A stretch of 64,000 bases of DNA from a virus (lineage: Duplodnaviria > Caudoviricetes): positions 1 to 64,000 of IMG/VR virus record IMGVR_UViG_2854078061_000001. The stretch is one strand, 5' to 3'. The notes below the pieces were generated by a model. It was not told where the DNA came from. It saw nothing but the letters and a program-made list of their open reading frames with translations, and ran no database searches. Below, one piece after another: positions 25,829-64,000 of the stretch. A program made the position numbers and the translations under genes. Each line of letters opens with the position of its first letter. Within the stretch, counting starts at the first letter, position 1.

Positions 25829-25838
25829 ATATAAATTA

Positions 25839-26283: not shown

Positions 26284-26355
26284 TGGTGCGATTGGATGGA
26301 CTTGAACCACCGACGCGCATTCAGCCTGCTGCTCTACCAACTGAGCTACAATCGC
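26284..26355 (-). tRNA. Atypical tRNA (Phe-like) with anticodon arm 4 nt short
   Basis: Intact acceptor, D and T arms and CCA; anticodon arm GCAGGCTGAATGC is 13 nt. Confidence 0.7.
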
Positions 26356-26443
26356 ATAAGATACTCGGCTTACAAGGCCAATTGCACCCTTTCGAGCGAG
26401 CCGAGAATAATTGACAAGAGTTATTATGTTACCCCTTTCGGGG

Positions 26444-26532
26444 TGGTGCCGCTACTGGGATTCGAACCCAGATGATATTACTACCGTCGAATCTTAAGTT
26501 CGATGTGTCTAGCCTGATTTCACCATAGCGGC
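26444..26532 (-). tRNA. tRNA-Leu (UAA)
   Basis: TCGAA-CT-TAA-GA-TTCGA; long variable arm; CCA. Confidence 0.9.
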
Positions 26533-26623
26533 ATATCAAAGCTGTCTGTCCAGCAGCCAACCGTCTTTCCGATTTGTCAAACCGTTTCGCTCTACATACA
26601 AGCTCCCGACTCAATCGAGCCGG

Positions 26624-26703
26624 TGGTAGCCCCACCCGGATTTGAACCGGGAACAATAAGCAAGGTTTGAACTTGCCGCGTGTGCCAATTTCGCCATGGG
26701 GCC
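26624..26703 (-). tRNA. tRNA-Leu (CAA)
   Basis: GCAAG-TT-CAA-AC-CTTGC; CCA. Confidence 0.85.
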
Positions 26704-26743
26704 ATATATGCTCGTCTTTCCGAGCCGCCACTGCTTGCGCAGG

Positions 26744-27061
26744 TCATTCCTCTACTTCAAACACCATGTAGTACATGTGATTATCTTCACCGTTATCGAC
26801 CGATGCTCCGATAACATACTCAGGATATGGGTCCAACTCACATCCGCAAAAATCAGCGTAGGATTCAGTGTCAACTTTCACTGCATCTTCGTACCGAGCG
26901 GCCTCATCTTCAGGCATCCCATTGAGAAAACACTGAAAGCTGACAGCGGCAAAAGCAATCGCATCGTCTCTTGATTTGAATGCTTTATCAATACTTACTG
27001 ACTTGTAGACATCAGCTTTCTCGTTGGTGTAATCGCTTGCGACGATATACATCTGAATCAC
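26744..27061 (-). CDS. Acidic hypothetical protein
   Basis: ORF overlapping the upstream stop. Confidence 0.55.
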   Translation of the reverse strand: MIQMYIVASDYTNEKADVYKSVSIDKAFKSRDDAIAFAAVSFQCFLNGMPEDEAARYEDAVKVDTESYADFCGCELDPYPEYVIGASVDNGEDNHMYYMVFEVEE

Positions 27062-27729
27062 TCCTTATCAAAGATATCGGTATACTTGGTATACAGCTTG
27101 CCGTTATGGAAGTAGGTATTGTAATCGCACTGTGTCACATACCACCATCGCTTCTGATGACCAGCCAACAGAAAATCGTGCAGATGATAGGTTTCCTTAT
27201 AGTGCTCATCCACCCGCTGACGGAAGGTGAGCTCGTCGATCTGGTTAGAATACAACACATAATCAGCAATCTTATTGATATCGTTCTCGGTCATATCGTC
27301 ATCCACAACGAAAACCACACGAACGATTTCACCGCCAACACGATGAATTTTGTCCAGTTCGTCCATATGATGCAGATGATAAACAACCCGATCGAATCTT
27401 TCAAACGGGAAAAGCATGATGTCTGGATCATTCTTAACATCATAATAACTGGTGTGCAATTCAGTCTGACGACCAAGCTTTCTGCAAGTATCGAAAAAGT
27501 ATGCCCACCACTTCTGATGATGAGGCCACTTCCATAATGGATCACCGCCGCCTGATACGGACACCCAGTTGCAATCAGCGCAATCATTATAAAGGGCGCT
27601 CCATAATTCATCACGAGAAGAATACTCCCCTGTCGGTGTCATCTTGAGCTTGTTATTGCGGACGATACACTCAGGGCAGCTGTAGTGGCACCCGAAGTTC
27701 GTGATAATACTGAGATATTTGTCAGCCAT
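27058..27729 (-). CDS. Radical SAM protein
   Basis: CHYSCPEC (CxxxCxxC), SVSGGGDP. Confidence 0.85.
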   Translation of the reverse strand: MADKYLSIITNFGCHYSCPECIVRNNKLKMTPTGEYSSRDELWSALYNDCADCNWVSVSGGGDPLWKWPHHQKWWAYFFDTCRKLGRQTELHTSYYDVKNDPDIMLFPFERFDRVVYHLHHMDELDKIHRVGGEIVRVVFVVDDDMTENDINKIADYVLYSNQIDELTFRQRVDEHYKETYHLHDFLLAGHQKRWWYVTQCDYNTYFHNGKLYTKYTDIFDKE

Positions 27730-27735
27730 TTTGAT

Positions 27736-27990
27736 TTACTCCTTGTTAATAGTAAGCTGAATAGACCAATAATCTCTATCGTTTCCAGTGTAAATCAAAG
27801 AGTCCAAAACTTCTGAGTGCTGATCGCACTCGTGATAAATTTCTGGACCATGGCTCTGAAGCCATCCAGACTCCACTCCGAACTTTTTAACGATTTTTCC
27901 TTCATCAATGACTGCGATGCTATCGGAAGCCTTATCTTTCGCTTCTTCAATCATCCATTCAACGATTTCTTTGATATTCAGATTTGCCAT
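27736..27990 (-). CDS. Hypothetical protein
   Basis: ORF with RBS. Confidence 0.55.
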   Translation of the reverse strand: MANLNIKEIVEWMIEEAKDKASDSIAVIDEGKIVKKFGVESGWLQSHGPEIYHECDQHSEVLDSLIYTGNDRDYWSIQLTINKE

Positions 27991-28023
27991 GATTCATACC
28001 TTCTTTCAAAATGTTACTAAAAA

Positions 28024-28114
28024 TGGTGCCGGTAGCAGGACTCGAACCCGCGCCTCTGTCTTATCTGGACCAAGGGGTATAAACCCAGTGCTCTAGCCGC
28101 TGAGCGATACCGGC
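28024..28114 (-). tRNA. tRNA-Ile (UAU) with long variable region
   Basis: GCCGGTA/TACCGGC acceptor; GGG-TT-TAT-AC-CCC anticodon loop; CCA; 91 nt. Confidence 0.75.
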
Positions 28115-28133
28115 ATAAGAGAGGAGGATTTAA

Positions 28134-44221: not shown

Positions 44222-45613
44222 ATGAAGTTTTATGACACCTCCGCGCTTCTTGATTTGGGAGCCGCCGCTTTCGAACCTGCCAGTGCAACAGCCTCTGGTG
44301 CAACAGAGCCGTTTCTGATTGCCGATATGACGCTGCACGAGCTGGAAGAGATCAAGACAAGCGGCAAGAAGAGCGAAGAGATCCGCTATAAGGCCCGTAC
44401 TGTAACCCGCCTGCTGGCCGAGCATCACGACGACAACACCTTTATGGTAGTGGCAGTCCCCATGTCTTCCCTGTTCTATATCCTGGATGGCAAACCGATC
44501 AGCGATAACAACGACGCGACGATCATGGCAACCGCCCGCTGGTATCTGGACGAGATGAAGCGCAATCTGAATGACGCGATTGAAGCCGGACTCCCGGAAG
44601 CACAGCGACAGATCCAGGCCAACATTGATTCTTTCAGGTTCGTCACCAGCGACCTAAGTTGCGCCAATATCGCCAGCGGCATTCTTGATCTGCCGATCGA
44701 GTTCTCCTATCCCGATGCAGCAGCAAGCGCCAATAATAACTACACTGGCTAGACTGAAGTCACTCTTGATGAAGGCGGCGAGGAAGCCATGGCGATGGCA
44801 TATCAAACCCACGATGAAGGCTATACATATCAGAATCTGTTTGACACTCCAGTGAATGGCTATCTGATTGTTCGTGATCCAGACACAGTAGACGATGATA
44901 TGCCGGCAGGCAATGCGGTAGGCTGGCTACGATGGAATGGCAAGAAATATGTACCACTCAAATACAAAAAGATCAGTAATCGCTTCACTGGCGACGTAAA
45001 ACCACTCAATGACCAACAGAAGCTCGCATTTGATATGCTGCAGAACGACGATATTACAGTTAAAATGCTGGCTGGAACATTCGGCAGCGGCAAGACAATG
45101 CTTATGGTGTCCTCTGCCATTGATATGATCGAGAAGCACAAGGTTGAGAAGCTGATCTGGATTCGCAATAACATCGAAGTCAAGAATACCAAGGAGTTGG
45201 GTGCACTACCTGGCACTCTACTAGAGAAGCTCGGCGCTGCTTCTTTTGCTGGACCTCTGGCTGATCACTTGGGCGGCGAAGCTGGTTTGGAATACTGGAT
45301 CAATAATGGGCAGGTAGAAGTAGCTCACCTTGGATTTATTCGTGGCCGCGACTACAAGAACGCAATTATTATGGTTTCAGAGGCTGAGAATCTGACCAAA
45401 GAGCATGTACAGCTGCTACTCGGCCGTGTTGGTGAAGGATCTATGCTGTGGCTTGATGGCGATCTGAAGCAGACTGACGAGGCCGTGTTTGAAAATAACA
45501 GCGGTATGCGTAAGGCAATTCAGTGTCTGGCTGGCAACCCGCACTTTGGATATGTCTACCTGAACAAGACAGAACGCAGCGAGACCGCACAACTGGCTGA
45601 CCTGTTAGACTAA
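44222..45613 (+). CDS. phoH: PIN + PhoH-family ATPase (in-frame TAG at 44750)
   Basis: YDTSALL PIN start, GTFGSGKT, IRGR, SEAEN, GDLKQTD; both halves in one frame. Confidence 0.88.
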
Positions 45614-45627
45614 GGGGGCACAGCAGA

Positions 45628-45909
45628 ATGATAGAAGTAAGAATAGACGGATTACGACCAATGGATTACATCTCTCCTACTGGCGACTGGAACTATGAAG
45701 CGATTGACGGTTTAGCGAAAGAGTTGTGTGACCGACTTCGAGAAGTTGAGACAGAACAGATACTGGAGGAATTCAAAAAATATATAGAAAACCAACATTC
45801 TGACAATATGGTTATATTAAACCAATTGCAAGCTCAATTGAATAATATAGCTACACACCGATATCTGATTACACCATTTAACAGAGGCATAGTAGCATGG
45901 GACAGATGA
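45628..45909 (+). CDS. Hypothetical protein
   Basis: ORF in operon. Confidence 0.55.
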   Translation: MIEVRIDGLRPMDYISPTGDWNYEAIDGLAKELCDRLREVETEQILEEFKKYIENQHSDNMVILNQLQAQLNNIATHRYLITPFNRGIVAWDR

Positions 45910-46226
45910 GCAAAGCTAGTGAAGAAATATTTTATACAACCAATGAGTATCTGACCTATAAGATGTCTCGATATTTTGACACTTATGTTCTGTTGCTTGG
46001 TTTAAAAGACAACTCAGGATTCTTCATGGATTTTGTCGGTGGAGCAGGAGTCCATTATCATCTATATAAGCAGACGGGACCTGCTGTATTTGCATTTATC
46101 GATGATAATTATAAGGTACTTCGTGGAGACGACGCAGAATGGATTACTAATCTTGCTTTGAAAATATGCCAACAATATGACGAACAGCTGTTCAACGAAC
46201 AATGTGTCTGTGAGACTTTGCTATAA
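45906..46226 (+). CDS. Hypothetical protein with CxCxxLL tag
   Basis: Ends EQCVCETLL. Confidence 0.65.
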   Translation: MSKASEEIFYTTNEYLTYKMSRYFDTYVLLLGLKDNSGFFMDFVGGAGVHYHLYKQTGPAVFAFIDDNYKVLRGDDAEWITNLALKICQQYDEQLFNEQCVCETLL

Positions 46227-46240
46227 CAGGAGAAGAAATC

Positions 46241-46660
46241 ATGCGCGTTTTATTCGTAAGGTCATCGATCTATGACACAGTATGCGACTGGTATGAACGC
46301 ATGGATACTGTGCAAAAGCATCGCAAGGAGACCGCAATCTGTAAATCACCCGAAGATTTTTGGGATATATTCAATAAAGATAAATTCGGTGCACAATATA
46401 CGACATTCTATTTTGACGATAGGTTGGCGCTGACCGATACTTTTGAATTTTTCAAAGAGATCGCGCGGTTGTATGGTGAAGAGGATGCGAAATATATTTC
46501 AGAAAATAAAATGCGGCGGATCACCATGAACTATTTAATGAACAACAATCAGTTTGACTTGTTCCAGCAGTTCTCCATCACACCCGAATGTCTGGACGAT
46601 GTAATCCATGATGCTCTGGCTGATCAACAGTGTGAATGTGTGTGCAGACCGCTATTGTAA
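46241..46660 (+). CDS. Hypothetical protein with CxCxxLL tag
   Basis: Ends ECVCRPLL. Confidence 0.65.
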   Translation: MRVLFVRSSIYDTVCDWYERMDTVQKHRKETAICKSPEDFWDIFNKDKFGAQYTTFYFDDRLALTDTFEFFKEIARLYGEEDAKYISENKMRRITMNYLMNNNQFDLFQQFSITPECLDDVIHDALADQQCECVCRPLL

Positions 46661-46674
46661 AGGAGAGGCAAAAT

Positions 46675-47139
46675 ATGGAAAGAATACTAACGCCACGAGG
46701 CGGTGGACGTACATATGCGATATGCGAATACGCTGTCAAGAACAATTGCAATATCTTGGTGCCGATGGGCGGGACGGCTATATTATGTGCACAGGACTAT
46801 ATCAAGGAAATCGCAAGGAATCTTGATATTCAATATTAGGGGTATAGGGTTGATCATCAATGCCTTATAGTAGATTTACAAAGCAGAGCTCGCGGAGAAT
46901 ACAGTATTCACGTGATAACAACTACTTGTCCTCCCGATAATTATCGTGGATTGCACTTAGAGGATAAGCCACTTGTTGTTGATGATATTGACCGATGCTT
47001 TAAGTTCATGTGCTTCCCGAATGTGCGAATTGATGCCTGTTCTCTGATGACATATGATCCGAGCGAGGTTGCGTTTACACCGCCAACTGCACCTCAAGAA
47101 GTGCAGCGGGATGAATGCGTGTGTGACAGCTTGGTATAA
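46675..47139 (+). CDS. Degenerate P-loop-like protein with tag (in-frame TAG at 46837)
   Basis: PRGGGRT, LVVDDID; ends ECVCDSLV; open frame across TAG. Confidence 0.65.
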
Positions 47140-47153
47140 CAGAGGTGCCAACA

Positions 47154-47462
47154 ATGGATAAATTTGATACGCTACATGATGATCGCACGCTGAGATGGTG
47201 TAAGTACAGATATCCCGATGATATCAACAGTGGCGAGTTTACTTTTGACTGGGCGAAAGATGGATTCACATGGACTCTGCCAAGCGATAAACCACTGCGA
47301 ACCACAAACGAAATCGTATCTTACATTGACGCAAATGGTAATCAGCGTGAAGTTCAAGCGGAAGTAAAATACTATGGAATGGGACACGACACGCTGTGGA
47401 CGATTGCAATTCCTAATGTTGTCGAGGCAGAAAACGAGTGTGTCTGCGAATCACTATTATGA
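47154..47462 (+). CDS. Hypothetical protein with CxCxxLL tag
   Basis: Ends ECVCESLL. Confidence 0.65.
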   Translation: MDKFDTLHDDRTLRWCKYRYPDDINSGEFTFDWAKDGFTWTLPSDKPLRTTNEIVSYIDANGNQREVQAEVKYYGMGHDTLWTIAIPNVVEAENECVCESLL

Positions 47463-47470
47463 GGCACGAT

Positions 47471-47752
47471 ATGAACAATCAATTATTGATACCCGATGAT
47501 AAGATATACATATATCCATCAGATTGGAAGCAGCCTGTACGAATTCAATTTGAAAATAGATCGACCATAGACACTGTAAATCATGGCAATTCACATCACA
47601 CTATTCAATTCGACAAATGGGTTGATTATAACACCATAGTTACTGATGAAACTTTACAAAAGCTTATCAAAGACTATATATCGAAAAATTTTCCAAAAGA
47701 AGAATACAGTGTATCTATTCACAATGAGTGTTACTGTGAGAGCCTATTATGA
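47471..47752 (+). CDS. Hypothetical protein with CxCxxLL tag
   Basis: Ends ECYCESLL. Confidence 0.65.
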   Translation: MNNQLLIPDDKIYIYPSDWKQPVRIQFENRSTIDTVNHGNSHHTIQFDKWVDYNTIVTDETLQKLIKDYISKNFPKEEYSVSIHNECYCESLL

Positions 47753-48063
47753 AAAAATATATCAGTGAAGAAGTACAACAACAAGCAGCCCTACAATTAC
47801 ATATCGAAATTGAAAATGATTGTAAAATAAAATTTGATAATTTCAGATTTCAAATAGACGAAGACGATATGACGGTTTGCCGCTATGGAGAACCAGATGA
47901 AACGTTTGTAGTTAAAAGGAAAGTAAGACTTTTCTTATTAAATAACGGATTTGAATTCGAAATTGCTGGGCCTTATGCTGAACAGATGTACAGACGATAT
48001 CTTAAACTGATAAATGGAGATATCAATACAAATAGTGAATATTATTGTGAAAGTCTATTGTAA
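47749..48063 (+). CDS. Hypothetical protein with variant tag
   Basis: Ends EYYCESLL. Confidence 0.65.
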   Translation: MKKYISEEVQQQAALQLHIEIENDCKIKFDNFRFQIDEDDMTVCRYGEPDETFVVKRKVRLFLLNNGFEFEIAGPYAEQMYRRYLKLINGDINTNSEYYCESLL

Positions 48064-48068
48064 AGAAG

Positions 48069-48338
48069 GTGAAAATATTGGATGAACAAGAGCTAACTGT
48101 AAGAGTTGAAGAAATAGATAATCATTTATTTTCTATGCACGATACAGTGAACCATGCGATTATTAAAGTCGATGAAGCAAATAATCTGTCGCATTTTGCA
48201 GTAGAACGTATAGATACTATAAGAGCAACAACAATTTCGTATCAAACTGCGATTGATCAATTACAAGCTCGAATCGCAGAACTTGAACATAAAATCGATT
48301 TGCTGACAGGGCCATGTATTTGTGAGCCGCTGCTATAA
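48069..48338 (+). CDS. Coiled-coil protein with CxCxxLL tag
   Basis: Ends PCICEPLL. Confidence 0.65.
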   Translation: MKILDEQELTVRVEEIDNHLFSMHDTVNHAIIKVDEANNLSHFAVERIDTIRATTISYQTAIDQLQARIAELEHKIDLLTGPCICEPLL

Positions 48339-48349
48339 GGAGGAACTAT

Positions 48350-48625
48350 ATGAAAGAAAACGACTTTTCAAAACAGGATATTTATAATATTGGATTTGCC
48401 GTAGCTGATGCTGTGCGCGATTATGATGTAACTTACGAGGGTATCCTTGACGCGATTCAGGTATATGCAGAATAGCAGGAACTGATCGGCAATGCATCGC
48501 TTTATGATACGTTGTGGATGGAAGATGGTACGCCCATGTCCCCTTCTTTGACACGATATTTATTTCACGAGATGTACTGCCCAGATGATTATGGTTATGA
48601 TGAGGAGGACGGCGACGATGAGTGA
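48350..48625 (+). CDS. Hypothetical acidic protein (in-frame TAG at 48473; missed by ORF track)
   Basis: AAGGAGG RBS; read-through frame ends overlapping the next start. Confidence 0.6.
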
Positions 48626-48797
48626 TCGCAAGCGTGATAAGGTGTCTAAGAGCAGCTATATGCGTAACGCCCGCAAACAGCGTATGATTGAGAATCAGTT
48701 TTTGCAGGAAGTTGAGAAGGCTCAGGAAAGCGGCGAACGCCAGCGGCAATCAGAGCGGCGGAAGCGGCGCACAATGTGGGACGACGACGAGGATTAA
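48618..48797 (+). CDS. Small basic hypothetical protein
   Basis: GAGGAGG RBS; MSDRKRDK. Confidence 0.55.
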   Translation: MSDRKRDKVSKSSYMRNARKQRMIENQFLQEVEKAQESGERQRQSERRKRRTMWDDDED

Positions 48798-48813
48798 GGA
48801 GGTACACAATAGT

Positions 48814-49173
48814 ATGGACAAAGAGCCTAAGAAGCCGGGCGGAGAGAACGATACAGAGCGAGACGATATTCAGGAGATCCGCGTTAACTCTATTCCGCTG
48901 ATGGTACTTATCGCTGGTGTTTTAAGTTCCGTTGACTTTGTTGATTGGATGTTTACTATCGCAGAAATGCTTGTTGTATTTGTGCTTACATATCAGATCC
49001 TAGGGCGTATGCTTTTTACTGCCCTGGTGGTTACGCCCATTTTGGTTGTGTTTATCAGTAAGTGTCTGGCGGCCTACGATGAGATCATGTATGGCGACGA
49101 TGATATGGGCGGCGATGGCGAAGATGACGGCGATGACCACTTTAATGACCACTGGAATAATTTGATTCATTGA
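48814..49173 (+). CDS. Membrane protein
   Basis: Central hydrophobic helices, acidic tail. Confidence 0.6.
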   Translation: MDKEPKKPGGENDTERDDIQEIRVNSIPLMVLIAGVLSSVDFVDWMFTIAEMLVVFVLTYQILGRMLFTALVVTPILVVFISKCLAAYDEIMYGDDDMGGDGEDDGDDHFNDHWNNLIH

Positions 49174-49186
49174 GGAGTGATATTAT

Positions 49187-51730
49187 TTGTTTAGTCCACC
49201 ATTATATAGCGTACTAAAATTTAACTTGAATTATATCGTTTCTCATAACTATAATTTTAAACTGACACCAGAAGAGATGGAGCAGTATGAGGTCTTACAG
49301 GGCGACGATATGTTGTTCAGACAAATTCGGCTCATTTCCGACGACTAGAATAAATTCCAGCGCTTTATTATCTTTGTTGATGCAACAGGTGGCCAGAACC
49401 ACCCTGATGCTATTGATCATTTAGTAGAGCATGGATTCAAATTTAATGGCCAGAAATATCTGTTCTGTGAACGTAGTGCAAGTATGGTCCGTCAGAGCAT
49501 GTTAAGTTTTGTTGAGCGACATATCTACCCTGAACTTGACCGCCGCGTAAGCATGGAACTGGATTTTTCTGAGACACCCACCGTCCTGAGCAAGTATTAT
49601 GCTTATCGTGGTTTGATGCTGAGTAGCTGCCACTGCCTAGAGAACTGGTACCCCAAAATGATTGTTGTTCCAGACTATATGACAACGATCAAGAATCAGT
49701 GGATCGAGTATCTGGTAGACAAGACTGTGACGTTTAATGACCGCAAAACAGGCAAAGAGCGTACCTGGACTCAGAAAGATATCGCCACAAAAACAGTTGA
49801 CATTGATATCAACGCCTTTGATGGCGCTGGAATCTGCCACCCAAGTATCATGCGCGAATTTGAAAAGCGTATCGGCACTTCTGAACGGATGAACAGCTTG
49901 ATTTTGCGTGCTCCATATATCAAGGGTTGCTTACACGAGATTGATTACGAGCGTTTTTTTGAAGAGAACGGCGTTACAAAAATCAAGGACATCTGGGGCA
50001 TGGAATATGATGTAACACCTGGCAGCGAACCAATGATTATTATTACTGCTTCAATGTACAAGGGTCTCAAATATTTCAAGAAAACTGGTACCTATTCTGA
50101 CTGGGAGAGATATTGGGAACTTTTCAAGAAGTACGACAACTGCCTTGGTGTAGCTAAATGGAACTTTACGCTTGAACAAGAACCGCTTTCCACCCGTAGC
50201 AACTATCAGGTCATTCAAGATCTACAGCTCGACAATGAGTCTTTTAAGCATCTAGCTGACGACAGCATTACCTGGTATCAGAATATTGTCAAAGGCGACC
50301 CAATTTATACATACTGCTTCCTTGGTTTACTTGCCGAGAACAACGACCCGATGAATCATTACATGGCTGCTGCCCTGCGTAACCCAGTGATGGTGAAAGA
50401 GCCTGCAATCAAAGATTATATTCACTCGCTGCTTGATAAATATCGCAATGAGATGAAGTGCGGTCGGCTTTGGATGAATGCTACTTTTAAGTTCTGGGCT
50501 CCTGACCTTATTGCACTATTGCAGCACATTGGTGGCCTACCTGTGACTGGCTGCCTTGAAGACGGTGAGTTCTACAGCTTTGATCGTCGTGGTGTGATGG
50601 AGGGAGACCGCTTAATTGAGCGCAATCCCCATATCTCTGTTGCAGAACATGTAAAGGCCAAGGCCGTAGACAACGAATACACCCGCAAATACTGCAGCCA
50701 TCTTCAGAATGTTGCTATGGTAAATATCAAATCCATCGTGGCTTCCAGACTCAATGGTTCGGATTTTGATGGCGACCTGGTTCTAATCATCGATAATCCG
50801 CTGATGATGAGTGGTGTTCCTGATAATATCCCCATTACACTCGATGTTGAAGATAAGATCACTGCGTTGGCAGAATGTGATATTGTGAAGAACAAAGTTG
50901 CCTGCACCATTCGCGGATTGAAGAGTTCTATTGGCGAAATTTCAAACTACGCAACTGCATACCATAATAAGGTTCCGACCATGGAAAAGACCAAGAAGCT
51001 CTATCACGATAATATTTCGCTTTTGAGCATCTGCAACGGAAAAGCTATCGATTATGCTAAAACAGGTGTTCTATATCCGATCCCGCGTAATGTAGCAGCT
51101 TATGGTCGTCCTCTACCCTACTTTATGAAGTATGCAGGCCCTTACTACGCACGTTTACATAATCTCAGCAAGGCACATAGCAACATGAACCTGCTTTGCA
51201 TGAGTCTGGAGCGTTGGGAGCGCGGTGTACGGTGGCGTAAAGAGCCCGCAGGCAGCTTTGATTGGCATATCATGTACGATCCAGAGGTCTCCTATGACCA
51301 GGCAGTCTTTGATGAGATCGAAGCCATTTTCTTGGACTTCAACAAATGCCGCAAGGAACAGCTTGAGTTCGAAAAGAAATGTCGCAACTGGCAATTATAT
51401 CATAAGGACATCGAGTCGCGTATTACCAAAGAAGAGGCTAAGACATATGAGACGAACTGGCAGGCGATCTACAATGTCTACCGTAACAAGTGTAAGCTGG
51501 TGTGTCCTGATGTGAGAGAGCTGGCGAATATTCTTGTAGTGCTTTGCTATGAGAAGTATCCCAATAAATTCAAGAAGTTTTTGTGGCACATGGCCGGCGC
51601 TGGTGTGGTCGAAAATATCAAGCCGGTTCCTGTTCAGCTGCCAGTTCACGATCCGAACGGCGAGTACGAATACCTTGGCCAGCGATATAGTCTGGCTGAA
51701 CCGAAAATTTATGAAGCGAGGGTGAAATAA
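49187..51730 (+). CDS. YonO-like single-subunit two-barrel RNA polymerase (in-frame TAG at 49346)
   Basis: GSDFDGD catalytic motif, DGAG, LRAPYIKG, ERNPH; TTG start after GAGGAG. Confidence 0.85.
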
Positions 51731-51731
51731 T

Positions 51732-51980
51732 ATGGGTTGGTTTAAGAAGAAAACAAAGAAACCGCAGAAAATAACCAAGTGTCCTACCTGTGGCGGCTTG
51801 TTGACAAAGCAGACTGGACTGGAGCACGAATTTACTTATAAAAATCAGATGGTTCATGTGCCGGATATCACGGCGATGGTATGCGGTGATTGTGGCGAGA
51901 TGTATTTTGATTATACCGAATTCGAGCGTATTTCAAATTATGTTCATGAAGCAGTTGATGGGAAGGATGAAACAGAATGA
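51732..51980 (+). CDS. YgiT/MqsA-type zinc-ribbon protein
   Basis: CPTCGG...VCGDCGE.YF. Confidence 0.75.
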   Translation: MGWFKKKTKKPQKITKCPTCGGLLTKQTGLEHEFTYKNQMVHVPDITAMVCGDCGEMYFDYTEFERISNYVHEAVDGKDETE

Positions 51981-52261
51981 GTTATCGGTGTTTTAAAATA
52001 ACAATCATTACTTTGATAGCTGTAATATGTTTATGTTTAGGTATTGGAATTTGGGCATCTATTCCGCGCAAAAACAATGTAGGCGATAAATCTATTTATA
52101 ATGGAAGCTCTTTGTACAGTATTTCCAACACGAAACTTATTTACGATGAGAACACAAGAATTATGTATTATTGGCTACATAGTGGATATATGTCTCCATA
52201 CTATAATGCACATGGACAACTTTGCCGCTATATTGATGGCGAAATTATACCAATCGAGTAA
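51977..52261 (+). CDS. Membrane-anchored hypothetical protein
   Basis: N-terminal TM; YDENTRIMYY..MSPYY..G motif. Confidence 0.6.
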   Translation: MSYRCFKITIITLIAVICLCLGIGIWASIPRKNNVGDKSIYNGSSLYSISNTKLIYDENTRIMYYWLHSGYMSPYYNAHGQLCRYIDGEIIPIE

Positions 52262-52270
52262 GGAGGTTAA

Positions 52271-53083
52271 ATGGCATATACAACTTTCTACTGTAATGAG
52301 AATATACTGCTCGATCATTGGCAGGACTATCACGAGTCAAATCTGATGCTGCGAAATCTGCTGAAGCGAACCTCCCTCTCCCCTATTGAATGCGCCACCA
52401 TTTATTATGAGCGGATGAAAAATCCTGAGTCTGTCAGCTATGACCGTAGCCACTTGATCCAGACGTTCAGCAGAGGCCGTAAAAATAACGCGCCCATACT
52501 TGACGTACATCAAGTTGTGCTTTATCAGAAAGATCTGGACTATATCACAGAGGCGCGCCGAAAGTATCATATCAACTACGCACAATTACGTGTTCTGTTT
52601 GGGGTAATATTCTTCTGCCGGCTGTATGGAAGCGATACCTTTGCCTTGGATACCGAGTTCAAGATGAAACGTTTTGGTGGCTGCTTTGAAGAGCAGACAG
52701 AGATCATGTATTGCGCTGGGAAGAACTAGGACGACGGCTATAATACAGTGCGGGGCATGAAAGAGATTTCTGACGACTATCACCTGCTGAACAGAACCGG
52801 CACTGACGACATTGGATGCTTATACCAGTACCAAAATTTTGCCCTTGATAAGAATGACACGATTGCGTACACGTTCAATGTGACGCTTGAAAACAATCGG
52901 CTGAATTTAAGCGCCATAGTGCGAGAGCTATTTGACCCGAAGGAATGTTATTGCATCGTGTGTGGCGAACAGTATCACTCAGAAAAGCCAAATGCCAGCA
53001 GATATTGCAAAGGATGTGCGGCAAAGAAAGAACAGGCACGTCTAGCGAAAAAGAATGCGAATCGAAACAAACGACCGAAATGA
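52271..53083 (+). CDS. Hypothetical protein with C-terminal zinc finger (in-frame TAG at 52727)
   Basis: CIVCG...YCKGC; both halves in one frame. Confidence 0.7.
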
Positions 53084-53159
53084 ACTTTAAGTTCTTAATA
53101 TATGAAAGGGTGTTGTATATTTCCCTTTCGATTATAAATTACAAAGGAGATTTATTATA

Positions 53160-53357
53160 ATGGTTGAAATTACTAAGCGTGAGGCAGAGTATCTGCGTAA
53201 GGTTATTCCCGGTGTCCATATCACTCGTACCGTTCATCACTGGTATGCGGAGGAAATCAAGTCTGTGCTGACTCAGCTGCCTGGCAATCCCGAGGCAGAA
53301 GAGGCGCTACGCGAACTGAACCGCACCCAGCGTACCAACACCAATTTTGAGATCTGA
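53160..53357 (+). CDS. Hypothetical protein
   Basis: AAAGGAG RBS. Confidence 0.6.
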   Translation: MVEITKREAEYLRKVIPGVHITRTVHHWYAEEIKSVLTQLPGNPEAEEALRELNRTQRTNTNFEI

Positions 53358-53365
53358 GGTGGCGC

Positions 53366-54550
53366 ATGGACGAATTTAAGAAAGCGGACGGCGAGACCTT
53401 TGATGAATATATGATGCGGATTGGTGAGGCATGCAGCGAACGTAAGCTGACTTAGAATCAGGCAGCAGAACTGCTGAATGAAGCAACCGGCTCAGACTAT
53501 GGCGAATGCAGATATCGCAAGACCTATAAGTCGTGGAAAGATGGTTATGACTACGCTATTGATCACGCCAACGAAGAAACGATCCAGGATGAACTACAGC
53601 GACTGAAGATTGAAAAGATCAAATTACAAGATGAACGCAATGCAGCAAACAAAGTGTATCGCGATGTTGCCCGTGCCGAATCCATCAAGGAATTGATTCT
53701 GAAGAACGTTGCTCCGTATAACCCTGACAATTTTCTGAATGTTGTGCAATACGAAGGCAGCGGCCACGATGTGATTGTGTGCTTGTCTGATTTACATGCT
53801 GGCGCGGGTATTGATTCGGCGTGGAATAAGTTCAACAAGGATATCCTAAAGGCTCGGCTTGAGAGTTATGCTGCACAGGTGTTCAATATCGTAGCGCGAC
53901 ATACAGCCGAAAAGATTCATGTGCTGCTGTTGGGCGACCTGATCAATGGGCATATCCATGTTAATACCCGCGTGCAGAACAATGAAAACAGCATTGAGCA
54001 GGTTATGACGGCTGCAGAGCTGGTAAGTAATTTTGTTGCTACACTGTACGAGGTATGCCAGCATATTGACGTGTATTCTGTGAGTGGCAATCATTCACGA
54101 GTATTCCCCAGCAAAGAGGATCAGGTAGCAGGTGACGAACTTGAAGCACTGATTCCGTTCTATATGAAGGCACGACTGCAAAATCTGGCTGGCATTGATA
54201 TTAAAACAGAGAAGCTCGATCCGACCTTTGGTGGCTTTAAGGCTAGGAATAGTCTTGTGATGTACGCACATGGAGATAAGGACTCCCCTGCTAACGTCGT
54301 TGAGCACCTGACACTGATGGTGAAGCAGCCAATCGACATGGTGTTCCTTGGTCACCGCCACACAAACGGCATGACAACGGTGCATGGTACGAAGGTTATT
54401 GAGAGCGGCTGCGTTTGTGGCAGCGATTCCTATGCAATTGGACTGCGCAAAAATGATGTGCCGCAGCAGGCAGTGGCTGTAATCGATGACAGCGGCCTAG
54501 AATGTCTGTACGATGTCAAGCTGGAGAAGCCAGCAAAGATAGTAATTTAA
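53366..54550 (+). CDS. Calcineurin-like metallophosphoesterase with N-terminal HTH/coiled coil (in-frame TAG at 53453)
   Basis: SDLH, GDLING, GNHSR, HGD, GHRH motifs. Confidence 0.85.
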
Positions 54551-54561
54551 TAGAGATTTTG

Positions 54562-54591
54562 ATGCCCTGGGCTACGGCCTGGGGCATTTTT
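54562..54591 (+). terminator. Intrinsic terminator
   Basis: ATGCCCTGGGC-TACG-GCCTGGGGCAT-TTTT. Confidence 0.75.
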
Positions 54592-54597
54592 ATATGT

Positions 54598-54674
54598 CGC
54601 AGGTGACAGCGCCGGTGTGCTGACCAGCCTCATAAGCTGTGTTTGGATGCGTTCAACTCGCATACCTGTACCCA
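54598..54674 (+). tRNA. tRNA-Met (CAU), initiator-like C1:A72 mismatch
   Basis: Cloverleaf; CT-CAT-AA loop; CCA. Confidence 0.75.
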
Positions 54675-54710
54675 CAAAAATAAGTTAAAAAGGAGGGTTC
54701 CAAATTAGAG

Positions 54711-54974
54711 ATGGAAGAAAAATATCACAAAGATTTAGGAGGCGATTACTTCTACTGCTATTCCAGACGGACAGCACTGTTTGTTCGCGCTATGGGAATT
54801 TTTTACGAAGAGATTGGAGAGCACCCGGTAACTGGCTCTGTATATACAAAATTCCGCAAGACGAAAAAACTGAATGAAGTTTTAAAACTATAGGATCAGA
54901 TCAAATATCGCTTCGATGATATGATGGACGATGGAACGGTGGTGATTGGCTATGGCCAGAGTTGCCGCAGATAA
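54711..54974 (+). CDS. Hypothetical protein (in-frame TAG at 54891)
   Basis: YFYCYS...HP.TG..Y..F; read-through frame overlaps next gene. Confidence 0.55.
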
Positions 54975-55950
54975 GAAACCGCCTCGTATCAAGGTTCCGC
55001 CCTCTTGGAGTGGTGGCAAATGTATGTGTTGCGGAAAAATCTATGACGTGCGCAAAGGTAATTTCTCAAAAACGAAGAGTCAATGGTTTATTGGTAACGA
55101 CGGATACCTCCCGTGGTGCAATGAGTGCCGTGAGAAGATGTTTGAGTTTTATGTTAAGAAGTATAACGATGAAGATGAAGCGATTGACCGTCTGGCTATG
55201 ATGTTCGATACCTATGTAAATGATAAATTGCTTGACGCATCAGAACATTCTGTGGCATCTGCTTTAAAAATTAACACCTATATGGGACGGCTTAATATAC
55301 GTCAGTATGCAGATAAATCTTATGACGATGTGATCGACCAGAAGAAAAAAGACGCTTTGGCTGCCGGTGATACAAAGGGGACAAAGGTCACTCTGAAGAT
55401 GAGAAAATTCTGGGGTACTGGTCTGGATGAAAAAGATTATTTATTCCTTGATGAGCACTATCAAAATCTTATCACTAGACATGAATGTAAGACGGCCGCA
55501 CAAGAAATTCTGTTCAAACGCATTGCAAAGGCAGAACTTAATTGCGATAAGGCTGATGCCACTGGCGACACAAAGAAAATAAAAGAAGCAAACGACAACC
55601 TGCAGAACCTGATGGGGTCCGCTCAGATCAAACCGAATCAGACGAACGATAACGCATTGGCTGAAACGAATACTTTTGGCACGCTGATTCAGAAATAGGA
55701 AGAGGAAGAGCCGATTCCAGAACCGTCGCCAGAGTGGCAGGACGTTGATGGTATCGGTAAGTATTTTAGAGTGTGGGTGCTGGGTACGTTGCTTAAGATG
55801 TTCAACTTGAAGAATCCATATCAAGACGAATTTGACGAAGAGTTTGAACGATATACTGCTCATAAACCAGAGACAAATGAGGACGATGACACAGATACTA
55901 GCCTCCGCGAAACTATTTTCGGTATTGGCGAAGGCGGTGGTTCCGCATGA
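54952..55950 (+). CDS. Zn-finger protein, terminase small subunit candidate (in-frame TAG at 55696)
   Basis: CMCCG...WCNEC; read-through stop forms ATGA overlap with terminase start. Confidence 0.7.
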
Positions 55951-57704
55951 GTAAAGAGAAATTAACAGATAAGGAAGTAGCGAATACAAAATCAGAAAAA
56001 ATAATGAACGCAGTTGCCATGAGGGCATCATTCTATAGAGCGAATCCTCAGCGGTTTGCAAAAGACTATTTAAACCTGACATTGAAGCCATTCCAAGAGC
56101 TACTATTGTTTTTGATGGTGAGATGCACCGGCTTCTGCTTCATTGCTGCTCGCGGCCTTGGTAAGTCATTTCTAACCGCAGTTTTCTGTGTGATTACATG
56201 TATTCTATGGCCTGGTTCCAAGGTTTGTATCGCCTGTAAAGTAAGAAGCCAATCTATCAGTATTTTGGATGAAAAGATAATGAAGGAGATCTACCCCAAC
56301 AGTCCCCTTCTACGCTCTGAAATCAAAAAGGTCGATATCAACAATCAGAAAGCAGAGATTATATTTAAGAACGGCAGCTATATCAAAGTAGTCACTGCCA
56401 CAGATAGTAGTCGTGGTAGTCGAGCTACACTTCTCATCTGTGATGAATATAGATTGCTTTCTAAAGATGTTATAGATTTGATTTTGAAGAAGTTCCTGAA
56501 TATTGTTCGTCATCCTGGATATTTGGACAAGCCACAATATGCACATCTTGCAGAGCGAAACAAAGAATTCTACCTAAGTTCCGCTTGGTTCCAAAACCAT
56601 TGGAGCTATGAAAAATGTCAGGACTACTTTGTAAATATGATCGACTTTAATAAGAAATATTTCTGCGTATCCTTCCCGTATCAAATGTCAATCAAGAGCG
56701 GCTTGCTGTTGAAAGAAGCTGTAGAGGACGAAATGAGTGAATCAAGTTTTTCTGATTTGACATTTGCAATGGAGAATGAATGTAAGTGGCTTGGTGCTAC
56801 TGAGGGTGGGTTATTCCAATTTGATGACATCAACAAAACGCGCGTCATTGAAAAGGCGTTCTACGCACCGAATCTTTTACTTAATCAAGCTGCTATGGAC
56901 GTGCCGAAAAAGAAAAATGGCGAAGTACGAATTCTCACCGCCGATATTGCATTGATGAGCAGTCGCAAAAACGACAACGATGCAACCAGTATCTTCTTGA
57001 ATTGTATGCTGCCAAATAAATCAGGGCGCTATACTAGCAATTTTGTCTATTCAGAGAACATTGAGGGTATGAGTGCGCAAGATCAGGCACTAAAACTGCG
57101 ACGGTATTTCGATTATTTCAACTGTGATTATATCGGGGTTGACTGTAGAGGTGTTGGATTGCCTCTGGTTGACCTGTTGATGCGCGATATGTATGACCCA
57201 GAAACAGGCGAAACATATCCTGCGATTAGCTGCTGTAACAATCAAGAAATCGCATCTCGCTGTTCTGACAAAAATGCCAAAAAGGTCATCTAGGCAATTA
57301 TGGGCAGCTCTCAGTTTAACAGTGATGTAGCCATTGGATTACGCAGCGGTTTCCAGCAAGGACGTATCCATCTGCTTCAGAGTGAGTACGGATGTGAAGA
57401 CCAGTTGCGCAAAATCTATAAAGGCTATGATAAAATGTCGCCTACTGAACGAGCCGCACTACAGATGCCATATATCAATACCGGGCTTGCTGTAAACGAA
57501 CTTGTAAATCTGGGCTACGAAACCGTAAATAACGTTATCAAAGTCAAGGAGAAATCCGGCTGCCGTAAAGACCGCTACTCTTCCCTGTCTTACAACTATT
57601 ACATTGCGCAGCAAGTTGAACGAAGCATGGAGAAGAAGAATAAAAAGCCAACTTCGCTCACGTTTAACTTTAGAGCGCCTGTATTAAAGAAGGGAGGACT
57701 GTAA
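55947..57704 (+). CDS. terL: Terminase large subunit (in-frame TAG at 57291)
   Basis: AARGLGKS Walker A, LLICDE Walker B, nuclease ADIA..ND.T and KDRYS. Confidence 0.88.
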
Positions 57705-59227
57705 TGGCTGAAGATAAAATGCAGAAAAAGGTCCGCGTAACAAATGCCAAAGATGGCAAGACCTCTTATGTAACATATCAGGATCTTGTCAATGGCGTTT
57801 ATGCGAACCTGTCACATATCGGTATCCGTAATCTGGCATCGAATACCGACACAAATCCGACATATACAAAATATACGAAAGATCAGATCGTCACCTATCT
57901 TGGCAACCCCGCCAACTATGAGAAGCAGCTGCGAAATATGAGTAAATATCTATTCAATATTTCAAACTACTATCGCCGACTGATTCAGTATTTTGCGAAT
58001 ATGTCTACATATTCTTACACGATTTCTCCGTATGGACTTGATCGCTCTAAGACAATTAACGCCAATAAATTTAAGAAGGCGTATTATTCTGCTGTAACAG
58101 CAGTTGAGCTGATGAATATCCCGCACGAAGCCACGAAGATACTGACAATTGCATTCCGCGATGACGTTTACTATGGCTATGCGTGGGAGACAAATGACAG
58201 TTTTGCTTTTCAAAATCTTGATGCAGACTATTGTAAAATAAGCAGCATTGAGGACGGCGTTTATAACTTTGCTTTTGATTTTTCTTATTTTGATTCCAAC
58301 AAAGACAAGCTGCCCAACTATCCGCCAGAGTTTGAGACGATGTATAACCAATATAAGGCTGACTCGCAGAACTACAAGTGGCAGGAGCTGGACAGTTCCA
58401 AGTCCATTTGCATCAAAGTAAACGAGCACGATTATATCCCCATTCCCCCGTTTGTGAGTTTGTTTAGTGCGCTTGCCGATATTGAAGACTACCGTGCCAT
58501 CAGTAAAAACGCAAGTGAGACCAATAACTATAAGGCGCTGGCAATGGAGATCCCAGTGAATGATACTGACGGCTCTTTCCTGATCGACTATGATACAGCA
58601 AAAGAGTTCTATGACATGATGAGTAATGTACTGCCGTCGAATATTGGCGCAATTCTTACTCCCATGAAAATCAGCAGCTAGAACTTTGAAAAGAGCGGCG
58701 TGAACAGTGACTCTAAAGAGGTCGCAAATGCTGAGGCCGCATTCTTTACAAGCGCTGGCGTGAATAAAAATCTGTTCGGCGGTGGCGAAGATCCTTCTGC
58801 TACTACCCTGCAGCTGTGTACTGTGAATGACCAGGAGATCGTGTTTGCAGTGATGCGACAGTTGGAACGCTGGATCAATCGCAAGCTGAAGAGCGTTTCC
58901 AGTTCTTATAGGTTCCGCCTAAACTTTCTACCAGTTACTCATTATAACGTGACTGAGATGCATGAAAGATATCTCAAGGATGCCACCTATGGTATGCCGA
59001 CTCGAACCGCAGCTCTTGCAACTACTGGTTATGCGGGTAGCGATTATGAGAACATGACTTATCTTGAAAATGAAATCTTGAGACTTAGTGCTGGTGAAAC
59101 ACCGCTCAAGAGCTCCAATACTCAGTCCGGTTCCGCCGGGGATGAAGGTGGCCGCCCAACAAATGCAAGTAAGGGCGAGGGCCTGTCTGATGCTGGCAAT
59201 GTAAGCGCCGATAGACAGGAGGCATAA
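57704..59227 (+). CDS. Portal protein (in-frame TAG at 58679)
   Basis: Position after terL, ~507 aa, ends with GGRP motif typical of SPbeta-like portals. Confidence 0.78.
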
Positions 59228-63300: not shown

Positions 63301-63735
63301 ATGGCAACCACTTTTGAAAGTATCTATGCCCGCTGTCGTGGGCGCATTCGAGATTATGATAAGGAAGGATATACTGACGAGATGTTTGCAGATGCAGAGA
63401 GCGACCTGCTTCAGGCCGCCATTGATGATTTTGCTGACATTTGCGTGCAAGACCTGACTGACTATGATGATGAGTTGCAGCAGTTCAATGTTACTCTGAC
63501 CCGCAAGGAACAGAGTATTCTGGCGTTGAGCATGATTGTACATTGGCTTGAGCCGTATGTTTACAACTCTGACGCTTTGAAGAACGCTATGAGCACTAAG
63601 GACTTTTCTTTCTTCTCCCCTGCTAAGCTACTTGAGCAGATGAAAGACCTTTTGACGCAGTCGCAGCGTAAATTGACTGCTGAGATGAACTTGTATTCCT
63701 TTAAGTCAAACAGTGTTTCTGAATGGACACAGTAA
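63301..63735 (+). CDS. Head-tail adaptor-like protein
   Basis: MATTFESIY start; position; helical acidic protein. Confidence 0.55.
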   Translation: MATTFESIYARCRGRIRDYDKEGYTDEMFADAESDLLQAAIDDFADICVQDLTDYDDELQQFNVTLTRKEQSILALSMIVHWLEPYVYNSDALKNAMSTKDFSFFSPAKLLEQMKDLLTQSQRKLTAEMNLYSFKSNSVSEWTQ

Positions 63736-63746
63736 GGCGGTGGGAT

Positions 63747-64000
63747 ATGACAAGATCTCAATATAGAGCCATGCTGAAACAGGATGGAGAGACGCAGCGC
63801 GACAGGGTGGTCAATAAGGCACTCCATGATACGCGCTTTTTAGCGCCAGTCAATCCTTCTTATAAAGAAGTAACGATAGATGACGTACCCCGCTGGGTAA
63901 ATATTATATCATCTACTGTTACAAACCAGAAAATATTCCGCACAAGACCTGGTGAGGATTTTGAGATCGGCAGCATTATGTACTGGGGTAAGAGCCACTG
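63747..64000 (+). CDS. Structural protein, truncated by window end
   Basis: ATG at 63747, frame open to the end. Confidence 0.55.
   Translation, partial: MTRSQYRAMLKQDGETQRDRVVNKALHDTRFLAPVNPSYKEVTIDDVPRWVNIISSTVTNQKIFRTRPGEDFEIGSIMYWGKSH

Follow-up and report, generated by a model that had tools for sequence, protein, structure and literature searches.

Comparison of a phage record with its relatives suggests, at a probability that we put at roughly 0.8, that a suppressor tRNA encoded by the phage and derived from tRNA-Trp inserts tryptophan at the sparse UAG codons of its late arm. The window, meaning the whole stretch of 64,000 nucleotides analyzed here, comes from an SPbeta-like temperate phage with gut Clostridia-type hosts and belongs to IMG/VR record IMGVR_UViG_2854078061_000001. 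This record, which is incomplete and classed as a provirus by IMG/VR, comprises 108 kb of a full genome of ~145 kb and lacks the initial ~35 kb. SPbeta-like membership is indicated by a YonO-type RNA polymerase together with yonJ/yonG/yonF/yonE synteny; the late arm is oriented rightward and the early-arm genes leftward. Aligned columns were compared for 32 late genes in ~60 independent IMG/VR/GenBank relatives, with G001, G002 and G022 used as TAG-free sister genomes. Other public runs also contain contigs of related phage.

In-frame TAG codons in the late arm

The first-pass annotation of the window had described ten genes between 44750 and 58681 as interrupted by in-frame TAG. All ten codons were recovered with the flanking residues it had given, and all ten frames run on past TAG to a TAA or TGA, but the range proved too narrow: the whole 108-kb record presents ~22 in-frame TAGs in ~20 genes, and almost all of these codons belong to the rightward late arm. 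The affected genes of the window all lie on the + strand. The first, a PIN-PhoH gene (44222..45613; Pfam PhoH, 6e-37), carries TAG at 44750-44752 (codon 177 of 463) and has a high coding score both 5' and 3' of it; its column holds W in L002 and G001, with the codon-level comparison resting on one TGG. Two small genes follow, one with no function assigned (46636..47139, TAG at 46837, codon 68 of 167), whose column is among the few Tyr columns (TAG in 20 relatives, TAT in 7), and the other (48350..48625, TAG at 48473, codon 42 of 91) with TAG in 34 relatives and TGG in 19. The YonO-type single-subunit RNA polymerase (49187..51730), which matches Pfam RdRP PF05183 (9e-17) and phrog_8308 (3e-92, residues 11-813), has 16 TGG codons besides its TAG at 49346 (codon 54 of 847), a column divided across relatives among TAG (22), Y (19) and D (14). 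A gene with no function assigned (52271..53083) contains TAG at 52727 (codon 153 of 270; TAG 41, TGG 16 in relatives), which is also present in the GenBank relative MT836002. The yonJ-like metallophosphoesterase exonuclease (53366..54550; phrog_284, 4e-61 over residues 15-387) is interrupted at 53453 (codon 30 of 394; TAG 43, TGG 14), and a further small gene (54711..54974) at 54891 (codon 61 of 87; TAG 40, TGG 19). In the yonG-like gene (54946..55950; phrog_3314, 1e-50, residues 25-300) the TAG at 55696 (codon 251 of 334) corresponds to TAG in 44 relatives and TGG in 16, and to W in 10, Y in 5 and F in 2 distant homologues. The large terminase (yonF-like; 55947..57704), 39% identical to SPbeta YonF, has its TAG at 57291 (codon 449 of 585), with 36 TAG and 21 TGG in relatives and W in 8, Y in 14 and F in 1 distant homologues. 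The portal protein gene (57704..59227; phrog_2739, 7e-114, residues 29-499) completes the ten, its TAG lying at 58679 (codon 326 of 507) in a column with 9 TAG and 47 TGG among relatives.

The pattern is also seen past the window end, since a late gene starting at 63723 (63723..64000 in the window, + strand, extending to record position 64763) contains TAG at 64584, beyond the window, in a column with 7 TAG and 43 W among relatives. Further in-frame TAGs lie at record positions 65173, 72834, 77122, 81436, 87685, 99586, 102289, 102685, 103797, 105158 and 106015, reaching the end of the late arm and including genes for the tape measure, tail/tail fibre, probable holin and endolysin. A candidate eleventh site at 43962 was not supported. 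Single Pfam or PHROG matches bridge the TAG in the PIN-PhoH, RNA polymerase, exonuclease, yonG-like, terminase and portal genes, and coding signal and family matches carry on past every TAG.

The first-pass annotation had described all ten interruptions as TAG, and no rightward gene that it checked as ending on TAG. Within the 32 late genes of the ~60 relatives, internal TAG occurs at 35 columns, with hundreds of occurrences, versus only two singletons of internal TAA/TGA; the remaining TAA/TGA, at codons 3-12, are upstream of true starts. As in recoded phages, a single stop type thus interrupts conserved genes whose frame is conserved downstream. When the record is read with code 11, 18 ORFs end in TAG, and every one of them is the 5' part of an interrupted gene. 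No genuine TAG terminator was found among the ~123 called genes, so TAG does not serve to end real genes here. In the sister genome G001, TAG serves as stop in 4 of 192 genes.

Identical TAG columns are retained in dozens of genomes at 89-100% identity, including two with direct terminal repeats (G038 and G040, both with TAGs and a CUA tRNA). The GenBank fragment MT836002, from Mexican human faeces, shares TAGs with IMG/VR records from several metagenome datasets. These observations bear on two alternative explanations. The provirus classification and incompleteness of the record would suit nonsense mutations in a decaying prophage with dead or split genes, but the retention of the TAG columns in close relatives, the near absence of internal TAA/TGA in aligned segments and the continuity of coding signal and family matches leave this explanation with a negligible probability. 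A sequencing, base-modification or assembly artefact converting TGG to TAG would require a single G-to-A change, yet it would have to strike ~8.5% of late-arm Trp-type codons, always at identical columns, and independently assembled sequences share these TAGs, in agreement with the first-pass argument against methylation-linked base-calling error. Both explanations are effectively excluded because the TAGs are conserved across these independent assemblies.

The late arm contains 225 TGG and 21 TAG codons, versus 182 TGG and one doubtful TAG in the early region (Fisher, 8e-5), and the same restriction to the late arm is repeated in the complete relative G004, a late/lytic-gene enrichment of the kind described for recoded phages. 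TAG usually occurs once per gene, and the number of genes with TAG (19) exceeds the 14.2 expected by random placement (P=0.006). Purine enrichment after TAG was not significant (18/21 versus 147/225, P=0.09). The first-pass annotation had proposed an unusual TAG=Trp phage code; its Trp component agrees with the results below, but this is not a wholesale code change, since only ~8.5% of late-arm Trp-type codons are TAG.

Residues aligned with TAG

Leaving TAG aside, W is the majority residue at 23 of the 35 columns, Y at 4, Q at 3, F at 2, H at 2 and L at 1, so that the alignment to homologues supports the first-pass proposal of Trp. At the codon level, the 11 columns with TAG in at least five relatives' genomes present TAG or TGG only in eight cases, the other three showing TAG/TGG plus a single Leu, TAG/TAT and TAG/Tyr/Asp; a twelfth such column, at 49244, has H/Y/R in a protein-level count. 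The ten window sites include seven with TAG or TGG only in relatives, one with TAG/TAT and one with TAG/Tyr/Asp. In the sister genome G001, where TAG is absent from these columns, 11 of the 14 alignable ones encode W. TAG columns are still aromatic in homologues at 31-54% identity, and in a more distant lineage with a different tRNA variant (G050/G052) W is found at 4/4 polymorphic TAG columns.

The same CUA tRNA might nevertheless insert another residue, either Gln, by GlnRS mischarging, or Tyr, with the phage tolerating Trp-to-Gln or Trp-to-Tyr replacement. Precedent for the former exists in E. coli su+7, a tRNA-Trp with CUA anticodon that GlnRS aminoacylates mainly with Gln, and Tyr and Gln are the majority residues at four and three columns, respectively. 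Moreover, C35 is an identity element for TrpRS, and in view of this and of su+7 mischarging a Trp-like tRNA body is no proof of Trp insertion. Gln codons, however, are far more abundant than Trp codons, and a Gln reading should therefore produce columns that, like those of code-15 phages, are predominantly CAG/TAG, whereas Q is the majority at 3/35 columns versus 23/35 for W, and the Gln-majority columns have TAG in just one or two genomes each. This distribution is not that of code 15 (TAG=Gln). The aromatic character of TAG columns in distant homologues likewise speaks against Gln, and we consider insertion of either residue improbable. Decoding as Trp is the reading with which the alignment of TAG with conserved Trp, as in code 32, is most consistent.

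Suppressor tRNA genes in complete relatives

No CUA-anticodon tRNA was detected by ARAGORN or Rfam in the window, as the first-pass annotation had noted, or in the whole 108-kb record, whose tRNA cluster (25745..28746, - strand) consists of three tRNA-Leu, tRNA-Gly, tRNA-Pro, an odd 91-nt UAU tRNA and a 69-nt tRNA-like element. In complete relatives, a second tRNA cluster with the suppressor is located (25.7-33.5 kb in G004) upstream of the point at which this record begins. We attribute the absence of the CUA tRNA from the record to the missing first ~35 kb, which we infer to carry it; the case for its presence in this phage comes from relatives with 99-100% identity in the terminase. The tRNA-Trp-derived CUA suppressor that the first-pass annotation had suggested searching for was accordingly found in complete relatives, in the slot of tRNA-Trp(CCA), and not in this record, and the TrpRS or release-factor gene it had also suggested was not found in complete relatives.

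A CUA tRNA was found in all eight TAG-bearing relatives in which a tRNA cluster was scanned. In G004, G038, G040, G033, G030 and G029 it occupies the fourth position of the order Gln-Glu-Ser(UGA)-[X]-Lys, and in G003 and G005 it has the same position within a variant set of neighbouring tRNAs. The same slot holds tRNA-Trp(CCA) in the TAG-free G001, G002 and G022, and the entire G001 genome has no CUA tRNA. Many further contigs of the collection match the CUA-loop pattern. One CheckV-complete genome, G035, has eight TAGs, yet lacks the entire 20-kb region holding the tRNA cluster. For each of five distinct CUA tRNAs, the nearest non-CUA tRNA is Trp(CCA), at 68-77% identity. They combine G73 with the loop CUCUAAA, where cellular Firmicutes tRNA-Trp has G73 and CUCCAAA, and differ from tRNA-Gln, with its UUUUGAU loop and 3-bp D stem, so that anticodon loop and D arm fit tRNA-Trp and argue against a Gln reading. 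Their 5-nt variable loop and G73 are unlike bacterial tRNA-Tyr, which argues against a Tyr reading. An altered acceptor end (G1-U72, C2-G71) is conserved in at least 13 variants of the family.

Homology of this tRNA to tRNA-Trp(CCA), by sequence and by position, also bears on UAG as pyrrolysine. ARAGORN does label the tRNA 'Pyl', but this label is automatic for any CUA anticodon, and with Lys the majority at 0/35 TAG columns such a meaning is scarcely credible. Editing of mRNA UAG to UIG by an adenosine deaminase, read as UGG, would likewise give Trp, with the CUA tRNA then incidental; hepatitis delta virus offers a precedent at its amber/W site. We regard such editing as very unlikely, given that no motif or structure common to the TAG flanks was found and that editing leaves unexplained why genomes with TAGs have the CUA tRNA and those without TAGs lack it. 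The occurrence of TAG at sister TGG sites and the tRNA-Trp-derived CUA tRNA of complete relatives together make Trp the most likely meaning of TAG, and it is from such sequence comparisons that we infer Trp to be the residue really inserted.

Proposed mechanism and comparison with known systems

Under the proposed mechanism, late-arm UAGs would be read as Trp by an amber suppressor tRNA that the phage encodes and that may have arisen from the phage's own tRNA-Trp through an anticodon C35-to-U change (CCA to CUA), with its gene among the leftward early-arm genes, themselves free of UAG, and charging presumably by the host TrpRS. Translation of late genes would then depend on earlier expression of the tRNA, a translational gate that could silence leaky late expression in the lysogen. 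The basis of this gating role is the distribution statistics only, and we hold its chances to be even; alternatively, the TAGs may be a side effect that a phage with a suppressor tolerates. Stop-codon recoding via a suppressor tRNA is of a known kind, whereas the meaning Trp is, as far as the literature goes, unreported in phages: no phage was found there with TAG=Trp demonstrated.

The assignment is not wholly unprecedented in nature, which tempers the first-pass description of it as unusual. NCBI code 32 has the same codon with the same meaning and is, to our knowledge, known only in a plant plastid. That plastid, of the Balanophoraceae, belongs to a plant parasite and has an extremely AT-rich genome; it is no virus, and the lineages are unrelated. 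Here, unlike there, only part of one genome is affected and the host presumably has the standard code. E. coli su+7 shares the single CCA-to-CUA anticodon change, likewise in a G73-bearing tRNA-Trp body, but is a laboratory mutant, mainly Gln-charged, whereas the natural target columns here are Trp and the acceptor end is altered and conserved. Bacillus phage SPbeta (Spbetavirus) resembles the present phage in its yonO-yonJ-yonG-yonF-yonE order, YonO-type RNA polymerase, related terminase, two opposed gene arms and similar genome size class. It differs in host and habitat, here gut Clostridia-like, and in having Tyr at the TAG columns of yonG and yonF, both of the SPbeta genes whose alignment covers one.

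Trp-isotype tRNA-Sup(CUA) has been reported adjoining theta ribozymes in gut phages by Kienbeck et al. 2024 (PMC10879173), who score 19.4% of 180 suppressor tRNAs as Trp isotype and mention a 'rarely reported code 32', but who rely on isotype prediction only, without codon-column evidence, and favour code 15. Unlike those tRNAs, the CUA tRNA here has no Rfam ribozyme family beside it at E<0.01. Recoded gut phages (crAss-like, Lak, Agate, Jade and others) use code 15 (TAG=Gln) or code 4 (TGA=Trp) (bioRxiv 10.1101/2021.08.26.457843; Peters et al. 2022, PMC9523058), and solely TAG-to-Gln and TGA-to-Trp changes were observed by Borges et al. (bioRxiv 10.1101/2021.08.26.457843). Like the present phage, they have one stop type in conserved genes, avoided as terminator, concentration in late/lytic genes and a host presumed to use the standard code, and lytic gating has been proposed there too; their cognate phage suppressor tRNA has its counterpart in the CUA tRNA of the complete relatives. 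The recoding described here, for which no release-factor or aminoacyl-tRNA synthetase gene was found, differs from theirs in that TAG is read most probably as Trp rather than Gln, and in being sparse, at about one codon per gene, rather than dense.

In-frame amber codons in the record and its relatives

A single virus record of 108,149 bp contains the window as its first 64 kb; IMG/VR classifies this record as a provirus, and CheckV estimates its completeness at 73%. The rightward arm starts at approximately 43.5 kb and shows synteny to Bacillus phage SPbeta; it encodes a YonO-type single-subunit RNA polymerase (49187-51730, plus strand; PF05183), kin of the eukaryotic RNA-dependent RNA polymerases, together with a yonJ-like exonuclease, a yonG-like gene, the yonF terminase (39% identity to SPbeta) and the yonE portal. 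Tape-measure, tail and tail-fibre genes, a probable holin and an endolysin lie to the right of the window in the same record, and the leftward arm (1-43 kb) carries other genes and a tRNA cluster. An exact-peptide scan of GTDB genomes for the host returned no match, and a profile scan returned only prophage terminases at 31-54% identity, in Clostridia and Bacillus genomes.

All ten in-frame TAG codons described by the first-pass annotation in late-arm genes (44750, 46837, 48473, 49346, 52727, 53453, 54891, 55696, 57291 and 58679) were recovered at these positions, with every frame running on to a TAA or TGA. The sites are real, but the range assigned to them (44750-58681) was too narrow, since further in-frame TAGs occur out to 106 kb; treating TAG as a sense codon yields approximately 22 TAGs in approximately 20 genes over the 108-kb record. 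Single profile matches span the TAGs in the portal (residues 29-499), exonuclease (15-387), polymerase (11-813) and yonG-like (25-300) products, and a hexamer coding score trained on long ORFs detects coding signal on both sides of the TAGs. Under code 11, all 18 TAG-ended ORFs are the front halves of interrupted genes, so that no gene of this record genuinely ends on TAG. An eleventh candidate, at 43962, was supported neither by relatives nor by gene calls and was discarded. TAG terminators are rare even in the TAG-free sister phage G001 (4 of 192 genes), and this rarity of amber terminators may have come first and made capture of the codon easier.

Prophage decay and sequencing error, as sources of interrupted frames, were weighed against relatives obtained by a terminase search of IMG/VR (59 loci, 89-100% identity); GenBank provided two further fragments, sourced from Mexican human faeces. 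Codon columns built at the nucleotide level slipped frame in the divergent polymerase gene, and protein-level columns, built for 32 late genes, were used instead. TAG is present in at least one genome at 35 of these columns, and internal TAA or TGA codons are limited to two singletons, the remaining ones falling at codons 3-12, before the true starts. The restriction of internal stops to TAG, first noted in this phage, is near-exclusive among its relatives as well. Direct terminal repeats mark the genomes of two relatives with TAGs as complete. Comparison at the sequence level excludes both decay and sequencing error.

The RNA polymerase is only 65-70% identical among relatives, making it far more divergent than the adjacent packaging genes. 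A variable intergenic cassette (54550-54589) separates the exonuclease gene from the one that follows; here contigs of two other samples have approximately 280 other bases in place of 38. In five relatives (L037, L038, L039, L040 and L052), the terminase gene is split within its Walker A motif, after AARG, by an insertion of 255 nt that has stops in every frame (L037 10210-10464, near window position 56155), and at this point a contig from a sequencing run carries a replacement of 267 nt. The insertion, which matched no Rfam family, is probably a small self-splicing intron.

Residues at the amber columns

Alignment of homologues supports the tentative assignment of TAG to Trp in the first-pass annotation. 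The majority non-TAG residue is Trp in 23 of the 35 columns, Tyr in four, Gln in three, Phe and His in two each, and Leu in one. At the codon level, eleven columns carry TAG in at least five relatives; eight of them contain only TAG and TGG, and the other three contain TAG/TGG plus one Leu, TAG/TAT, and TAG/Tyr/Asp. At the protein level, a twelfth column of this breadth is found at 49244 (His in 32, TAG in 13, Tyr in nine, Arg in one). A sister clade at approximately 90% identity has TGG at all of these columns, and the complete sister G001 has Trp at 11 of the 14 alignable TAG columns of the record. Among prophage homologues at 31-54% identity, terminase column 449 is Trp in eight, Tyr in 14 and Phe in one, and yonG column 251 is Trp in ten, Tyr in five and Phe in two. 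If TAG were instead read as Gln, the great excess of Gln over Trp codons should make CAG/TAG the prevailing column type; the observed columns do not follow this expectation, and those with a Gln majority present TAG in just one or two genomes. Sequence comparison in this way places UAG at Trp columns.

A tRNA-Trp-like suppressor in complete relatives

ARAGORN and Rfam tRNA scans identified seven tRNA or tRNA-like genes, none with a CUA anticodon, so that the reported lack of a CUA tRNA holds both for the window and for the whole 108-kb record. Two unusual genes were considered as hidden suppressors and rejected, neither being readable as CUA. The first, a 91-nt tRNA(UAU) (28024-28114, minus strand), has a badly paired anticodon stem and an extra region of approximately 20 nt and is conserved in the complete TAG-bearing relative G004; at about the same place G001 carries, in its second tRNA cluster, an ordinary 76-nt CAU tRNA. 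The second, a 69-nt tRNA-like sequence (26287-26355, minus strand) missed by ARAGORN and scoring 49 bits with Rfam, has an apparently shortened anticodon arm (3-bp stem, loop GGCUGAA) and could be either a pseudogene or an unusual tRNA.

Position 3049 of the record corresponds to position 38462 of the 145-kb genome of G004, and the record must therefore start approximately 35 kb into the phage. The terminase of G004 is virtually identical to that of the record (100% or 99.7%), and its genome has, between 25.7 and 33.5 kb, a second tRNA cluster that includes a 77-nt tRNA with a CUA anticodon; the suppressor of the present phage would lie within the part absent from the record. A Trp-derived CUA suppressor, for which the first-pass annotation advised a search of the rest of the phage, was located in complete relatives, in the position otherwise held by tRNA-Trp. 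In TAG-bearing G004, G038, G040, G033, G030 and G029, the CUA tRNA fills the variable position of a Gln-Glu-Ser(UGA)-[X]-Lys array, and it holds the same position, with variant neighbouring tRNAs, in TAG-bearing G003 and G005; in TAG-free G001, G002 and G022 this slot is occupied by tRNA-Trp(CCA). The Trp tRNA of G001 is 78% identical to the suppressor of G004, and for five out of five distinct CUA tRNAs the nearest non-CUA kin is Trp(CCA). All five carry G73 and a CUCUAAA loop, the tRNA-Trp of Firmicutes cells has G73 and CUCCAAA, and cellular tRNA-Gln has the loop UUUUGAU and a different D arm. Based on slot and similarity, the suppressor is the positional and sequence homologue of the phage tRNA-Trp, with one anticodon change. 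In these comparisons the CUA tRNA appears only in UAG-bearing genomes; one further relative, G035, has TAGs and lacks the whole tRNA region.

The E. coli suppressor su+7 is a tRNA-Trp(CUA) that is mostly charged with Gln, and a Trp-like tRNA body consequently does not settle which residue is inserted. A phage TrpRS or release-factor gene, which the first-pass annotation had also advised looking for, was not found in the complete relatives, which gave only a 12-bit sub-threshold match to PF00579 and zero matches to PF00472; charging would fall to the host TrpRS. In a search for a ribozyme beside the suppressor, tRNA was the only Rfam family detected at E<0.01. Two other features of these clusters were observed. 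In G003, one cluster contains a tRNA-Trp(CCA) in addition to the CUA suppressor (L108 7003-7077 and 7286-7361). In G004, the suppressor's cluster also holds a 73-nt tRNA (32490-32562, minus strand; L094 12490-12562) whose anticodon loop ARAGORN puts at 6 nt ('at', Ile|Tyr), and which is also found in G038, G033 and G003.

A pattern search of IMG/VR combining the anticodon loop and the 3' end matched more than 116 stretches, and 60 of the first 116 contained a CUA tRNA of the suppressor family. This family comprises at least 13 variants, all starting with GCG(C/U)C and ending with G(G/A)CGUGCCA, which usually adjoin tRNA-Ser(UGA). The most frequent variant is that of a more distant lineage (124-136 kb) absent from the terminase search matches; between two genomes of this lineage, G050 and G052, four TAG columns differ, with Trp at all four.

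Late-gene expression and comparison with known recodings

The late arm contains 225 TGG and 21 TAG codons, versus 182 TGG and one doubtful TAG in the early region (Fisher 8e-5), and the 77-kb leftward arm of G004, in which the tRNA lies, is without a credible TAG. In all, 19 genes are hit by TAG versus 14.2 expected from random placement among Trp codons (P=0.006); a purine following TAG is a non-significant trend. We read the UAGs as suppressed by a phage tRNA-Trp(CUA), with Trp as the probable residue. The UAGs may also have a regulatory role, in which early transcription would provide this tRNA, completion of the polymerase and of the packaging, tail and lysis proteins would have to wait for it, and any late transcript that leaks through in a lysogen would give truncated proteins. 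The one-TAG-per-gene pattern fits either such a gate or near-neutral G-to-A drift, under which multi-amber genes would be limited by their multiplicative cost. RNA editing would instead change UAG in the transcript. Contigs from four runs of other studies hold relatives of this stretch, one of them an oligo-dT RNA library, and none of the differences listed falls on the middle A of one TAG (52728); the RNA library possibly contains DNA, and its contig is uninformative on editing. The furthest-reaching interpretation is that of a gut-phage family, comprising the SPbeta-like clade and at least one distant lineage with at least 13 Trp-derived CUA tRNA variants, that uses a natural TAG=Trp code in late genes, with a host TrpRS accepting the tRNA despite its anticodon change and one amber per late gene acting as a translational lock, by which the lytic programme depends on expression of the tRNA; we put its probability at a little below one half.

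If TAG is indeed read as Trp, this case would constitute a third stop-codon meaning for phages and would indicate that amber capture can begin from tRNA-Trp. The alternation of tRNA-Trp(CCA) and CUA tRNA in one slot between TAG-free sisters and TAG-bearing phages suggests a reassignment under way, and TAG/TGG polymorphism at 99% genome identity would offer a rare view of ongoing codon reassignment. Single TAGs in polymerase, terminase, portal and endolysin genes make a testable natural case of suppressor-gated late expression, and a natural amber suppressor, if accepted by bacterial TrpRS, could become a tool for genetic-code engineering. Annotation pipelines restricted to tables 11, 4 and 15 would split or mistranslate these genes; NCBI table 32, the plant plastid code in which TAG specifies Trp, fits them.

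A literature search by phrase for TAG or UAG as tryptophan found no phage paper. In a survey preprint (bioRxiv 10.1101/2021.08.26.457843), TAG-to-Gln and TGA-to-Trp are the only recodings in phages that differ from the host code, and PMC9523058 describes proteomic support for TAG as Gln. The phAss-1 group was considered as a match for the present phage and rejected, since it reads TAG as Gln (PMC10607447). Among ribozyme-linked phage suppressor tRNAs, 19.4% score as Trp isotype, and the paper reporting them still favours code 15 (PMC10879173). Comparative sequence evidence strongly supports TAG as Trp in these late genes, a known type of recoding with a different meaning: in phages with suppressor-tRNA stop recoding the established meanings are Gln for TAG and Trp for TGA, whereas the present phage favours Trp for TAG.
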